Assembly: GCA_965224025.1 (NCBI GenBank)
Contig: OZ245033.1
Location: forward strand, 3,232,001 to 3,296,000
DNA: 64,000 bases
Source of the DNA: Candidatus Multivorans sp.
GTDB taxonomy: Bacteria > Acidobacteriota > Thermoanaerobaculia > Multivoradales > Multivoraceae
Direction of reading: 5' to 3'
Positions 25,755-41,198 of the stretch are shown here, piece after piece (position 1 is the stretch's first letter; every line of letters starts with the position of its first letter). Below the pieces are notes generated by a model. That model was not told the origin of the DNA. It worked only from the letters and a program-made list of their open reading frames with translations, and searched no databases. A program made the translations under genes and the position numbers.

Positions 25755-26450
25755 GTGACGCGGCCTTCGCCACGGGCTGCCGGACTCTCCGCGAGTCAGG
25801 AACTCGGTCTGCTGCGAGACCTCGGTTTCGAGGACGCCTATCCGCCGCGGGCGGCGGAAGCCGTCCAGGAAGGCGCGGGAGACCGCTCCGAGCGTCTACG
25901 GACGGTGGCGGAAGAGGCTCGGGGCTGTACCGCGTGCCGGCTCTGCGAGCAGCGCAAGACGGTCGTGTTCGGTGACGGTCATGCTGACGCCGGCCTGATG
26001 TTCGTCGGCGAGGGTCCCGGCTACAACGAGGATCAACAGGGCCTGCCCTTCGTGGGGCGGGCGGGACAACTGCTGGACCGCATCATCGCGGCGATTGGCC
26101 TGAGCCGTCAGGAGGTCTACATCACGAACGTGGTCAAGTGCCGGCCGCCGAACAACCGCAATCCGCAGCCGGACGAAATCGCCGCCTGCCGTTCGTTCCT
26201 CGACCGGCAGATCGAACTCGTGGCCCCGGGTGTGATCGTCGCCCTCGGCGGAGTCGCGGCCCAACAGCTCCTGCAGACGAAGGACTCCGTGGGCCGCATG
26301 CGGGGCCGTTGGCACGACGTGCGGGGTGTACCGGTTCGGGTGACCTACCATCCGGCCTTCCTGCTAAGGGATCCGTCGTACAAGCGGGCCGCCTGGGAAG
26401 ACATGCAGCTCGTCCGCGATCGTCTGTTGGAGGCTGGCGGACATGGCTAG
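25755..26450 (+). CDS. Family 4 uracil-DNA glycosylase; its TAG stop overlaps the IS110 insertion core
   Basis: C..C.L, GEGPG..ED..G.PFVGRAG.LL, NVVKCRPP.NR.P, TYHPAFLLR. Confidence 0.96.
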   Translation: MTRPSPRAAGLSASQELGLLRDLGFEDAYPPRAAEAVQEGAGDRSERLRTVAEEARGCTACRLCEQRKTVVFGDGHADAGLMFVGEGPGYNEDQQGLPFVGRAGQLLDRIIAAIGLSRQEVYITNVVKCRPPNNRNPQPDEIAACRSFLDRQIELVAPGVIVALGGVAAQQLLQTKDSVGRMRGRWHDVRGVPVRVTYHPAFLLRDPSYKRAAWEDMQLVRDRLLEAGGHG

Positions 26451-26539
26451 GAGTGTCCGCAGCGTTGTCGCTGCGCTGTCGCGCAGGGAACAGGCAGCGA
26501 GTAGCCAACGTTACAGCGGCGTCGTGGGTTCATAGAGTT

Positions 26540-26725
26540 GGCCGCGCTGGGCAGCGAGGCCGCGCAGGCACTGGTGTGTTGGCGCCCGACTAGGAGTTTG
26601 GCCCGGACCGTGATCGGCGCTCTGACGCTGGCGGCGCGGCTTGTGTCGCGACCCCGTATGCAAGATTGAGCTTTTCGCCGCGGTCTCTGCCCAGCGCGAC
26701 GATTGGATTCCACATCTACGGGAGG
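26540..26725 (+). ncRNA. Predicted IS110 bridge RNA (copy 1); boundaries approximate
   Basis: Non-coding left end with target-matching (CCGACTAG, GGCT) and donor-matching (ATGCAAG, CACATCT) segments in LTG-RTG-LDG-RDG order. The CCCGT/ACGGG stem closes the donor loop. Upstream promoter-like TTACAG-16-TAGAGT. Confidence 0.7.
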
Positions 26726-26731
26726 CAGGGG

Positions 26732-28051
26732 ATGGCAAAGCGGAAGGCGGAGCGTCTGGAAGTCGTTCACCCGGATTGCGCCGGTGTGGACGTAGGCAAG
26801 CGCAAGCACTACGTGGCGGTGGCCCCGTCGCGTTTCGAGCGGCCGGTGCGCAATTTCTCGTCGTTCACGGAGGACCTCGAGGCGATGGCCTCGTGGCTTC
26901 AGGAGTGCGGCGTGCGTGAGGTGGCGCTGGAGTCGACGGGGGTGTACTGGATTCCGGTGTTCGAGGTGCTGGACCGGGCGGGGTTCGAGGTGCATCTGGT
27001 GAATCCTCGGGCGACCAAGCAGGTGAGTGGCCGCAAGAGTGACGTTCTGGACTGCCAGTGGATCCGGCAGTTGATGAGCTACGGGCTCCTGCGCGGTGCG
27101 TTTCGCGCGCCGGACGAGTTGTGTCCGCTGCGTTCGTACACGCGGCAGCGCGCCCAGTTGGTCCGCGACCGCAGCCGCGCGGTGCAGCACATCCAGAAGG
27201 CTCTGGTGCAGATGAACGTGCAGTTGGACAACGTGCTGAGCGACATCATGGGCAAGACCGGCCAGTTGATCGTGCGCGCGATCGTCGCCGGCGAGCGCGA
27301 CGGCGCGGCGCTGGCCCGTCACCGGGACGGTCGCTGCAAGGCTGGTCCGGCTGTGATCGCGGCGAGTTTGCAAGGCAACTGGCGAGACGAGCACCTGTTC
27401 GCTCTGGGCCAGGCGCTGGCCCGCTACGACATGCTGCAAGGCCAGATCGAGATGTGCGAGAAGCGCATCGACGCCGAGCTCGACGGTCTGGCCCAAGACG
27501 GCGTCGAGGACGCGCCGCCGCCCGGTTCGAAGGCGCGCGAGCGCGCCCTGCGGAAGCGGCTGCATCGCATGCTCGGCGTGGACCTGGTCGCCATTCCGAC
27601 GGTCGGCGTCGAAACCGCGCTGACCTTCGCCGCTGAGATCGGCCCGGACCTGTCCCGGTTTCCCTCGCAGGGCAACTTCTGCTCGTGGCTGTGTCTGGCT
27701 CCACCGACCAACATCAGCGGCGACAAACGGCTGAACGGCCCTCCCGTGAAGCAGACCAACCGGGTCGGCCAGGCGCTGCGCCAAGCCGCCACCACAGCCC
27801 GCAACAGCAAGACCGCCATCGGAGCCTCTCACCGCCGGCGTCTCCAGCACATGGAGAAGGCGAAGGCCATCAAGGCCACCGCTCATCAACTCGGCCGACT
27901 GATCTACGCCATGCTGACCCACGGCGAAGAGTACGTCGAGCGCGACCTCGCCGAAATGGAGGCCGTCCGACGCGAACGACAAATCAGAAACCTGCAGCGT
28001 CAGGCCCGCCGCCTGAATCTGGCTCTCGTGCCGACCGAACATGCCGCCTGA
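26732..28051 (+). CDS. IS110 DEDD recombinase/transposase
   Basis: GVDVGK, LESTGVYW and KSDVLD (DEDD RuvC-like); Tnp domain SWLCLAP...SG; RBS GGAGG. Confidence 0.97.
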   Translation: MAKRKAERLEVVHPDCAGVDVGKRKHYVAVAPSRFERPVRNFSSFTEDLEAMASWLQECGVREVALESTGVYWIPVFEVLDRAGFEVHLVNPRATKQVSGRKSDVLDCQWIRQLMSYGLLRGAFRAPDELCPLRSYTRQRAQLVRDRSRAVQHIQKALVQMNVQLDNVLSDIMGKTGQLIVRAIVAGERDGAALARHRDGRCKAGPAVIAASLQGNWRDEHLFALGQALARYDMLQGQIEMCEKRIDAELDGLAQDGVEDAPPPGSKARERALRKRLHRMLGVDLVAIPTVGVETALTFAAEIGPDLSRFPSQGNFCSWLCLAPPTNISGDKRLNGPPVKQTNRVGQALRQAATTARNSKTAIGASHRRRLQHMEKAKAIKATAHQLGRLIYAMLTHGEEYVERDLAEMEAVRRERQIRNLQRQARRLNLALVPTEHAA

Positions 28052-28135
28052 ATCGCGCAACCTGCGCTGCCAACAAGGAACCCCTACCCGTTTGTTCCAT
28101 GCAAGTCCGCGCGGCAGGTTGCGGGTCTTGGCCCC

Positions 28136-39381: not shown

Positions 39382-39485
39382 GGCCCGGCAGCCTAGGAGT
39401 GTCCGCAGCGTTGTCGCTGCGCTGTCGCGCAGGGAACAGGCAGCGAGTAGCCAACGTTACAGCGGCGTCGTGGGTTCATAGAGTT

Positions 39486-39671
39486 GGCCGCGCTGGGCAG
39501 CGAGGCCGCGCAGGCACTGGTGTGTTGGCGCCCGACTAGGAGTTTGGCCCGGACCGTGATCGGCGCTCTGACGCTGGCGGCGCGGCTTGTGTCGCGACCC
39601 CGTATGCAAGATTGAGCTTTTCGCCGCGGTCTCTGCCCAGCGCGACGATTGGATTCCACATCTACGGGAGG
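39486..39671 (+). ncRNA. Predicted IS110 bridge RNA (copy 2)
   Basis: Same left-end sequence as copy 1. Confidence 0.7.
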
Positions 39672-39677
39672 CAGGGG

Positions 39678-40997
39678 ATGGCAAAGCGGAAGGCGGAGCG
39701 TCTGGAAGTCGTTCACCCGGATTGCGCCGGTGTGGACGTAGGCAAGCGCAAGCACTACGTGGCGGTGGCCCCGTCGCGTTTCGAGCGGCCGGTGCGCAAT
39801 TTCTCGTCGTTCACGGAGGACCTCGAGGCGATGGCCTCGTGGCTTCAGGAGTGCGGCGTGCGTGAGGTGGCGCTGGAGTCGACGGGGGTGTACTGGATTC
39901 CGGTGTTCGAGGTGCTGGACCGGGCGGGGTTCGAGGTGCATCTGGTGAATCCTCGGGCGACCAAGCAGGTGAGTGGCCGCAAGAGTGACGTTCTGGACTG
40001 CCAGTGGATCCGGCAGTTGATGAGCTACGGGCTCCTGCGCGGTGCGTTTCGCGCGCCGGACGAGTTGTGTCCGCTGCGTTCGTACACGCGGCAGCGCGCC
40101 CAGTTGGTCCGCGACCGCAGCCGCGCGGTGCAGCACATCCAGAAGGCTCTGGTGCAGATGAACGTGCAGTTGGACAACGTGCTGAGCGACATCATGGGCA
40201 AGACCGGCCAGTTGATCGTGCGCGCGATCGTCGCCGGCGAGCGCGACGGCGCGGCGCTGGCCCGTCACCGGGACGGTCGCTGCAAGGCTGGTCCGGCTGT
40301 GATCGCGGCGAGTTTGCAAGGCAACTGGCGAGACGAGCACCTGTTCGCTCTGGGCCAGGCGCTGGCCCGCTACGACATGCTGCAAGGCCAGATCGAGATG
40401 TGCGAGAAGCGCATCGACGCCGAGCTCGACGGCCTGGCCCAAGACGGCGTCGAGGACGCGCCGCCGCCCGGTTCGAAGGCGCGCGAGCGCGCCCTGCGGA
40501 AGCGGCTGCATCGCATGCTCGGCGTGGACCTGGTCGCCATTCCGACGGTCGGCGTCGAAACCGCGCTGACCTTCGCCGCTGAGATCGGCCCGGACCTGTC
40601 CCGGTTTCCCTCGCAGGGCAACTTCTGCTCGTGGCTGTGTCTGGCTCCACCGACCAACATCAGCGGCGACAAACGGCTGAACGGCCCTCCCGTGAAGCAG
40701 ACCAACCGGGTCGGCCAGGCGCTGCGCCAAGCCGCCACCACAGCCCGCAACAGCAAGACCGCCATCGGAGCCTCTCACCGCCGGCGTCTCCAGCACATGG
40801 AGAAGGCGAAGGCCATCAAGGCCACCGCTCATCAACTCGGCCGACTGATCTACGCCATGCTGACCCACGGCGAAGAGTACGTCGAGCGCGACCTCGCCGA
40901 AATGGAGGCCGTCCGACGCGAACGACAAATCAGAAACCTGCAGCGTCAGGCCCGCCGCCTGAATCTGGCTCTCGTGCCGACCGAACATGCCGCCTGA
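39678..40997 (+). CDS. IS110 DEDD recombinase/transposase
   Basis: Protein identical to 26732-28051. Confidence 0.97.
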   Translation: MAKRKAERLEVVHPDCAGVDVGKRKHYVAVAPSRFERPVRNFSSFTEDLEAMASWLQECGVREVALESTGVYWIPVFEVLDRAGFEVHLVNPRATKQVSGRKSDVLDCQWIRQLMSYGLLRGAFRAPDELCPLRSYTRQRAQLVRDRSRAVQHIQKALVQMNVQLDNVLSDIMGKTGQLIVRAIVAGERDGAALARHRDGRCKAGPAVIAASLQGNWRDEHLFALGQALARYDMLQGQIEMCEKRIDAELDGLAQDGVEDAPPPGSKARERALRKRLHRMLGVDLVAIPTVGVETALTFAAEIGPDLSRFPSQGNFCSWLCLAPPTNISGDKRLNGPPVKQTNRVGQALRQAATTARNSKTAIGASHRRRLQHMEKAKAIKATAHQLGRLIYAMLTHGEEYVERDLAEMEAVRRERQIRNLQRQARRLNLALVPTEHAA

Positions 40998-41198
40998 ATC
41001 GCGCAACCTGCGCTGCCAACAAGGAACCCCTACCCGTTTGTTCCATGCAAGCTTGCGCCCCAGAACGCAACGCGGTGGATTCCTCGGTGAAGCCTGCTTG
41101 GAGCAGACCGCCGTTTCGAGTGACGGTTTGCCGACGCTCGGAGCGCGACGCCGCTTCAGCGGAGTCGAAATTCGTCTAGGTCGGCAGAGGAGCACGCG

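Follow-up and report, generated by a model that had tools for sequence, protein, structure and literature searches.

A predicted bridge RNA in the left end of an IS110-family insertion sequence, with an AG core and an IS1111-like order of guides

Two nearly identical insertion sequences with a long non-coding left end lie in the stretch of DNA analysed here (the window; 64,000 nt of contig OZ245033.1 from Candidatus Multivorans sp.). Does that left end specify an RNA that directs the element to its targets, and if so, which of its segments read the target and which read the element itself? The initial annotation, made from the letters of the window, proposed an IS110 element with a guide RNA in its left non-coding end, a bridge RNA laid out as in IS621. 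The element and the presence of a guide RNA find support in the analyses described below; the boundary and two of the four proposed guides do not. Judged by its sequence, the element is an RNA-guided member of the IS110 family whose left end encodes a predicted bridge RNA. We assign a probability of roughly 0.8 to the reading developed here, namely that a two-loop RNA from the left end guides the exchange of AG between ATGCA-AG-TGTCC and CTAGG-AG-NNTGCGC.

The window contains two copies of a 1,659-nt repeat (26447-28105 and 39393-41051, + strand), which are, as the initial annotation held, the same sequence twice, with a single difference of T at 27487 versus C at 40433. Genome-wide there are 14 full copies (identity 100% when rounded), including the two in the window, and in addition one gene relative of 85% identity and several fragments. 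With the AG core counted once, the element is 1,652 bp long and has a non-coding left end of 278 nt (26454-26731) and a right end of 54 nt (28052-28105). The encoded 439-aa protein matches the Pfam domains DEDD_Tnp_IS110 (PF01548, E 1e-25) and then Transposase_20 (PF02371, E 2e-11), bearing out its designation as an IS110-type recombinase, and scores 271 bits, against a cut-off of 140, with the NCBIfam model NF033542, 'IS110 family RNA-guided transposase'. The sole relative of solved structure is the IS621 transposase 8wt6 (E 6e-9). In a HMMER alignment to chain 8wt6_A, whose numbering is offset by 2 from that of PMC11208158, the D, E, D..D and S of the protein stand opposite the IS621 catalytic residues. 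Relatives in metagenomes are numerous, with 65-90% identity and lengths of 433-474 aa, and 7,996 of 8,000 scored candidate protein relatives have E <= 0.001. Because the 14 copies are near-identical and the orthologous site is empty in related contigs, we conclude, in agreement with the earlier claim, that the element is recently active.

The limits of the element follow from comparing its copies with sites that lack it. All 14 copies are preceded by CTAGGAG and carry ATGCAAG at the right end; to the right, NN-TGCGC followed by (C/G)GCAG, a REP-like repeat, flanks 11 of the 14. As had been proposed, AG is the shared dinucleotide: it stands at both junctions and is single in empty sites, with no additional duplication. 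On the inserted copies alone, either AG of CTAG-GAG could be the core. The genome contains 21 uninterrupted CTAGGAG-NN-TGCGC sites, most of which run on into the same REP sequence, and 12 sites of the form CTAG-NN-TGCGC, the prediction of the earlier register, which lack the REP continuation. The orthologous site is empty in contigs from two studies (X1 and X3), where it reads CTAGGAG and then directly TCCGTGC; the flanks of these contigs are about 90% alike, so that they represent relatives with an empty orthologous site and not excision in the host strain. CTAGG is present in the 21 empty sites and in the orthologous empty site, and is invariant in 14/14 copies. Finally, the left ends of homologs align in register with the second AG.

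Taken together, the empty sites and the homolog register place the core at 26452-26453, so that the target is CTAGG-AG-NNTGCGC, a REP-like repeat, and the circle junction expected from the sequence would be ATGCA-AG-TGTCC. GAG at 26451-26453 is target sequence, as the 21 empty sites and the orthologous site demonstrate, and the left boundary drawn initially with its core at 26449-50 is wrong. For this reason the empty targets previously given as ATGGCT[AG]TCCGCGC and CAGCCT[AG]CTTGCGC, and the junction given as CCATGCA[AG]GAGTGT, are off by 3 nt. No circle junction was seen in the contigs covering the window, which derive from DNA or are of unknown kind. The coordinates of all features are collected in Table 1.

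Table 1. Features of the element, its flanks and its predicted bridge RNA, in window coordinates.
Feature	Position	Strand	Basis or remark
Left target flank (LT), CTAGG	26447..26451	+	part of the REP-like target, outside the element
Left core, AG	26452..26453	+	register from empty sites and from homolog left flanks that end in AG before the aligned end
Element body, copy 1	26454..28103	+	copy comparison
Right donor flank (RD), TGTCCGC	26454..26460	+	first bases of the left end
Left-end terminal hairpin, GCAGCG, loop TTGT, CGCTGC	26459..26474	+	
Subterminal inverted repeat, left arm GGAACA	26487..26492	+	pairs with 28093-28098
-10-like box, TAGAGT	26533..26538	+	GTTACA 17 nt upstream; weak promoter candidate
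Conserved structured RNA (predicted bridge RNA), ~162 nt, six helices	26540..26701	+	covariation, 28 homologs
Closing helix	26540-52 with 26689-701	+	
Target-binding loop, base	26558-61 with 26600-03	+	
Proposed right target guide, GCGCAGG + C	26562..26569	+	complementary to top-strand CCTGCGC + core G
Target-binding loop, hairpin	26572-78 with 26583-88	+	
Left target guide, CTAGGAG	26590..26596	+	same sense as LT + core; followed by T 26597 = RD+1
Donor-binding loop, base	26606-10 with 26681-85, and 26616-19 with 26676-79	+	
Donor-binding loop, 5' strand CTCTGACGC	26620..26628	+	position equivalent to a right donor guide
Donor-binding loop, hairpin	26629-40 with 26645-56	+	
Left donor guide, ATGCAAG	26658..26664	+	same sense as LD + core
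Recombinase gene	26732..28051	+	439 aa
Subterminal inverted repeat, right arm TGTTCC	28093..28098	+	
Left donor flank (LD), ATGCA, and right core, AG	28099..28105	+	
Right target flank (RT), TCCGCGC	28106..28112	+	start of the REP-like repeat
Element body, copy 2	39400-41049		offset +12946 relative to copy 1

Fifty-nine homologous loci were fetched and 28 distinct left ends aligned; helices were taken from RNAalifold and inspection, and their pairs were then counted. Over the six helices and 28 sequences, 90.3% of cells are paired versus 36-43% with slid partners, both sides change in 27 of the 43 pairs of the structured RNA, and none of 500 shuffles reaches the observed helix measures. The alignment rows are related, so permutation figures of this kind overstate independence. 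Two U-G pairs are invariant in 28/28 sequences and become A-C if the other strand is read, which places the RNA on the + strand. The match to a covariance model built from the alignment ends at 26708. Single-sequence folds of 26540-26731 and 26451-26731 are no better than those of shuffles (z 0.15 and 0.31), and a search of Rfam returned nothing relevant, only two weak matches (E 1.3 and 2.8) far below the gathering scores.

Guides within this RNA were sought in an unbiased comparison of all RNA columns with all flank positions, loci being permuted. The left target flank singles out columns 26589-96 alone, in top-strand sense (z 5.6; 0.97 vs 0.60), and the right end of the element 26658-64 alone (z 4.8; 1.00 vs 0.77). 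The left-target 7-mer equals the locus's own left flank exactly in 44 of 52 loci; of the others, six have one mismatch, one has none found and one lies on a cut contig. The left-donor 7-mer equals the own right end exactly in 45 of 52. Including distant families reached with the covariance model, 18 different left-target and 10 different left-donor 7-mers match their own flanks, and one homolog family has a core of AA in place of AG.

In the window, ATGCAAG at 26658-26664 is identical to the final 7 nt of the right end and covaries with that end in homologs, confirming its earlier identification as the left donor guide. The left target guide had been placed at 26586-26593; it lies 3 nt further right, as the corrected boundary requires, and the earlier call overlaps CTAGGAG at 26590-26596 by 4 nt. 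Immediately after the left target guide stands a base that is identical to RD+1 in 31 of 36 distinct rows, by way of T and C classes, and in this resembles the handshake base of IS621. The corresponding base of the donor loop, next to the left donor guide, showed no consistent match to RT+1.

By its complementarity to the right flank, GCGCAGG(C) at 26562-26569 is quite likely the right target guide. Bases 26562-68 pair at 6-7 of 7 positions, G-T allowed, at 11 of the 14 own sites, versus 1.6% of random genomic 7-mers; at one of the 14 only 3/7 pair. In homologs (33 distinct rows) the mean is 4.09/7 against a null of 3.45 +/- 0.19, a value reached by 5 of 5000 permutations. Pairing is good in lineages L042, L044, L045, L063, L080 and L088 and poor in L054, L059, L075 and L079, several families pairing at only 1-3 of 7, and guide and right flank change together in the independent lineages L044, L063, L080 and L088. 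In all homologs an A of the RNA faces the core A on this side, so that only one core base is pairable there. The segment previously named as right target guide, 26634-26641 (GCGC GGCT), belongs instead to the donor loop: two of its eight bases fall in the loop of the covarying hairpin and the other six in the hairpin's 5' strand, and 8 of the 11 hairpin pairs have double changes.

These assignments define an order. In each loop, the strand 3' of the hairpin carries the guide that reads in the sense of left flank plus AG; in the target loop, the strand 5' of the hairpin carries the guide that complements the right target flank. The IS621 order LTG-RTG-LDG-RDG is accordingly not supported, since the 3' guides have top-strand sense and the 5' target-loop guide complements RT.

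Outside the RNA, the ends of the element carry further conserved features. The hairpin at the left terminus is kept in homologs, with differing stems, as judged by eye and uncounted. An inverted repeat of at least 5 bp occurs at the two subterminal places in 22 of 22 distinct homolog rows, in 5 different arm sequences; the repeat measures 5-8 bp, and beyond its arms the element extends a further 33 nt at the left end and 7 bp at the right end. Mini-elements of about 60 bp were also found; the left end is kept in them over some 40-46 bp and the right end over about 14-16 bp. They share with the full element the right end and the first left-end base and differ at +2 to +7.

A promoter for the RNA had been proposed at 26511-26538. 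The consensus scan returned no promoter match; by our own count, GTTACA-17-TAGAGT has 8/12 consensus matches. The -10-like box is semi-conserved in position, homologs having TATAAA, TGTAAG or TATAAG in the TAGAGT columns, just before the closing helix. By analogy with ISPpu9, an internal promoter probably lies near 26510-26538.

The right half of the donor departs from a four-guide scheme. The position equivalent to a right donor guide is the 5' strand of the donor loop, and in the window copy 26620-26628 offers at most C-G(core) and A-T(+1) pairs. No right donor guide was found with k=4 against RD +1..+14 (27 rows, run twice), with k=5 against RD +1..+45 (32 rows) or with k=5 anchored on the left inverted-repeat arm (23 rows); the best z values were 2.6-3.3 and followed no consistent diagonal. 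The four-guide model of IS621 is therefore incomplete for this element. CACATCT at 26711-26717, named initially as the right donor guide, is unconserved, lies beyond the end of the model match at 26708 and overlaps the ribosome-binding stretch. Its supposed partner, GAGTG, is not element sequence, and the ACGGG arm of the accompanying CCCGT/ACGGG stem is unconserved and outside the conserved RNA. A same-sense likeness noticed by eye between 26623-28 and left-end sequence some 5-10 nt ahead of the left repeat arm was discarded at a z of only 2.5. It involves TGACGC in the main family, CTTCAC in L077 and GTCGAG in L091.

The right donor half may instead be recognized by means of the hairpin at the left terminus together with the subterminal inverted repeat, which covaries. 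The other explanation, that 26620-28 is a degenerate right donor guide pairing discontinuously with the first left-end bases, we hold to be unlikely. Its position is equivalent to that of the right target guide, partial complementarity can be drawn by hand in L051 (5/6), L054 (6/7, one base skipped) and L091 (6/9), and the IS621 right donor guide, as described in PMC11208158, is itself discontinuous, with 9 RNA bases to 7 DNA bases. Yet the hand alignments were picked after inspecting the data, the scans yield no diagonal, the window copy allows only 2 adjacent pairs, and the mini-elements, which share the right end and base +1 of the left end with the full element, differ from it at +2 to +7.

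Under the reading that we favour, the left end would be transcribed in the direction of the recombinase gene into an RNA of about 160 nt, probably from an internal promoter near 26510-26538, and this RNA would fold into two internal loops closed by one long-range helix. In the target loop, the base after the left guide matches the first base of the element in a handshake-like manner; for the donor loop, no guide to the first bases of the left end was found, and that side may be recognized by way of the terminal hairpin and the inverted repeat. The recombinase, with its DEDD and Ser residues, would bind this RNA and exchange strands at AG between a circle junction and the REP-like target, a chemistry that we extrapolate from IS621 and ISPpu9. 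Of this reading, the comparisons described above show the RNA structure, the covariation of three guides with their flanks, the target, the boundaries and the recent activity.

It is improbable that the structure in the left end serves chiefly as a translational leader or as protein-binding sites, with flank matches that are DNA end repeats. A precedent exists in ISPpu9, whose 5' UTR folds and inhibits translation, an inhibition relieved by an antisense RNA (PMC12288879). However, 26590-96 tracks host flank outside the element through 18 different sequences, and 26562-68 tracks the right host flank too, more weakly. U-G pairs and changes that compensate each other indicate a folded RNA, and the protein family has been shown to use such RNAs (PMC11208160); moreover, leader and guide roles are mutually compatible. 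The earlier IS621-type model (order LTG-RTG-LDG-RDG, core at 26449-50, junction CCATGCA-AG-GAGTGT), although correct in its left donor guide and free to use either AG of CTAG-GAG on inserted copies, is hardly credible, given that empty sites read CTAGGAG and not CTAG, that homolog left ends are in register with the second AG, that its right target guide sits in a stem with compensatory changes, and that its RDG and ACGGG arm are unconserved, beyond 26708 and overlap the ribosome-binding stretch.

The element can be compared with three published systems. With IS621, as described in PMC11208160 and PMC11208158, the element shares a DEDD + Ser recombinase, an RNA in a long left end that lies upstream of the gene and in its sense, two internal loops in which a hairpin separates two guide strands, a core contained within the guides, a handshake-like base after a guide and a REP target. 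It differs in its distant protein (439 aa versus a 328-residue chain, E 6e-9), in a reversed guide order within the loops, in a core that reads AG in gene orientation, in closure of the RNA by a long-range helix where IS621 has a 5' stem-loop, in 3'-side guides that are both 7 nt long, in the lack of a detected right donor guide and in having no evident junction promoter.

AG had been presented as a core different from that of IS621. It is the CT of IS621 read from the other strand, and an AG crossover has already been demonstrated for ISPpu9. Because the IS621 scheme reappears, with CT in place of AG, once the DNA is rotated by 180 degrees, AG is not a chemically new core; the difference from IS621 is the orientation of RNA and gene relative to the crossover site.

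Placing the complement of the top strand first is the guide order of the IS1111 seekRNAs, unlike that of the IS110-type ISEc21, according to the description in PMC11187229, and the order that PMC11208160 gives for IS621 is opposite to that of the element. Like ISEc11 and ISPa11 of the IS1111 group, the element places the complement of the top strand on the 5' side of the match to the bottom strand, and it has subterminal inverted repeats and a 7-bp terminal extension beyond one arm. Unlike IS1111 elements, as characterized in the same source (PMC11187229), its non-coding region is upstream and not downstream of the gene, its repeats are 5-8 bp compared with the usual 11-13 bp, its terminal extensions measure 33 nt (left end) and 7 bp (right end) compared with 7 and 3 bp, and its protein has 439 aa compared with about 340. 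Thus, as read from the sequence, the element joins an upstream RNA to the IS1111 order of guides. Rare IS1111 relatives with an upstream non-coding region, such as ISMtsp17, are mentioned there as well (PMC11187229).

A close parallel in its biology is ISPpu9, an IS110-family element of Pseudomonas putida KT2440, for which an AG crossover at both termini was established by experiment (PMC12288879). By that account, ISPpu9 inserts into REP sequences, has a 43-bp left box with a target-like palindrome and a 16-bp right box, is expressed from a native promoter with a long structured leader and not from a junction promoter, and has MITE derivatives bounded by the same boxes (PMC12288879). Likened to this published description and not by sequence, the present element agrees in its AG termini, its REP target and its target-like left palindrome; the box sizes match the ends that its mini-elements keep, and it would share the native promoter with a structured leader. 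Its mini-elements differ in being without ssr9-like cargo. Among the fetched loci the nearest from Pseudomonas (L060) encodes a protein 58% identical and has different ends. The AG core and much of the biology of the element are, to the extent covered by the ISPpu9 account, already in print.

In the bridge RNA and seekRNA literature consulted we found no description of an upstream RNA with the top-strand-first guide order. A 2026 preprint reports 86 covariance models for 32,190 bridge RNAs, many unlike IS621 (10.64898/2026.10.21.760802), and the RNA class described here may be among those models or in the supplements of PMC11208160 or PMC11187229. Tentatively, and with more doubt than conviction, we entertain a third architectural class of IS110 elements, marked by an upstream RNA, the IS1111 guide order, a covarying inverted repeat and only three guides, to which ISPpu9 may belong. 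The same tentative reading, taken as a whole, would have this class spawn mini-elements of about 60 bp and give rise to self-targeting variants, in which the target guide equals the donor guide and which would insert behind the right ends of kin and so build tandem arrays.

Bridge recombinases are under development as programmable tools for the insertion, excision and inversion of DNA, and the IS621 template is not simply transferable to other IS110 elements, since here it led to a misread boundary and two misread guides. The corrected map, with its three guides, target and junction, together with 18 naturally reprogrammed target guides of relatives, provides a starting point for experiments. 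How the right donor half is recognized becomes the mechanistic question here, given that a fourth guide is missing and the inverted repeat covaries; the same question arises for ISPpu9 as published. Outside the seed alignment, the covariance model recovers the RNA from 8 of the 151 genomes sampled in the order; in the genome of the element itself it has 16 matches, which are the 14 copies and two orphans.

The genome that carries the window also holds 13 mini-elements of only 54-62 bp each. Each is made up of a left-end start, bearing a hairpin and a repeat arm of its own, joined to the right end's final ~15 nt (...TGTTCCATGCAAG). On their left side they have CTAGGAG, or in 3 of the 13 CCAGGAG or TTAGGAG, and on their right side a REP-like flank. 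Compared with the full element, base 1 is identical and bases +2 to +7 are different. These short copies are MITE-like and are probably mobilised in trans. One full copy of the element, L004, has inserted into the left junction of such a mini-element. The start of the mini-element forms its right flank, which pairs with the proposed right target guide at only 3 of 7 positions.

In some relatives the target guide is identical to one of the family's own right-end termini, namely ATGCAAG, ATGAAAG, ATGCGAG or ATGGAAG, and the elements with such guides are positioned immediately behind a right end of that kind. Two of these loci, L027 and L050, are head-to-tail tandems. L086, which is in the window's own genome, lies behind a mini-element of ~112 bp, and another transposase gene truncates it just past the RNA.

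The element ends also contain a subterminal inverted repeat, one arm of which adjoins the 7-nt right terminus and the other of which follows after the first 33 nt of the left end. Both arms vary jointly in all 22 distinct homolog rows, where the variants GTTCC, GTTAG, GTTTG, GTTTC and GTTAC each occur with their complement.

Target-like 7-mers are likewise present within the ends, and the left-end motif is identical to the proposed right target guide. A guide relation for these motifs was rejected: among homologs the left-end motif is invariant, whereas the proposed right target guide is variable. For this reason we take the end motifs, as sequences, for traces of REP-like ancestry.

Selected loci and sequence features of the element family
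Feature	Position	Remark
Mini-element examples	G000:C1:527072, 539353, 1070784, 4356825	
Full copy L004	G000:C1:5042507	
Loci with a right-end terminus as target guide	L086 (G000:C1:907594-910776), L026/L027, L045, L048, L050, L051, L075	
Subterminal inverted repeat GGAACA / TGTTCC	window 26487-26492 and 28093-28098	
CCTGCGC (right end)	window 28062-28068	right-flank motif of target
GCGCAGG (left end)	window 26481-26487	complement of target right-flank motif
Relative, 85% identical	C1:2129367-2130518	

Beyond the 14 copies of the element, scores on the NCBIfam model NF033542 reveal at least two further IS110-family groups in this genome, one of ~11 copies (173-178 bits) and one of 3 copies (about 171-176 bits); the genome also contains an 85% identical relative and some fragments. 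The RNA model additionally recovered a distant family (loci L088 and L090) whose guides, TAAAAAA and TTAGGAA, both match the family's own flanks, and whose core appears to be AA. Plasmids of Citrobacter and Enterobacter (plasmid records H3-H8) commonly carry an IS110-family transposase with 46% identity, and Citrobacter accounts for 61 of the 504 records that match it.
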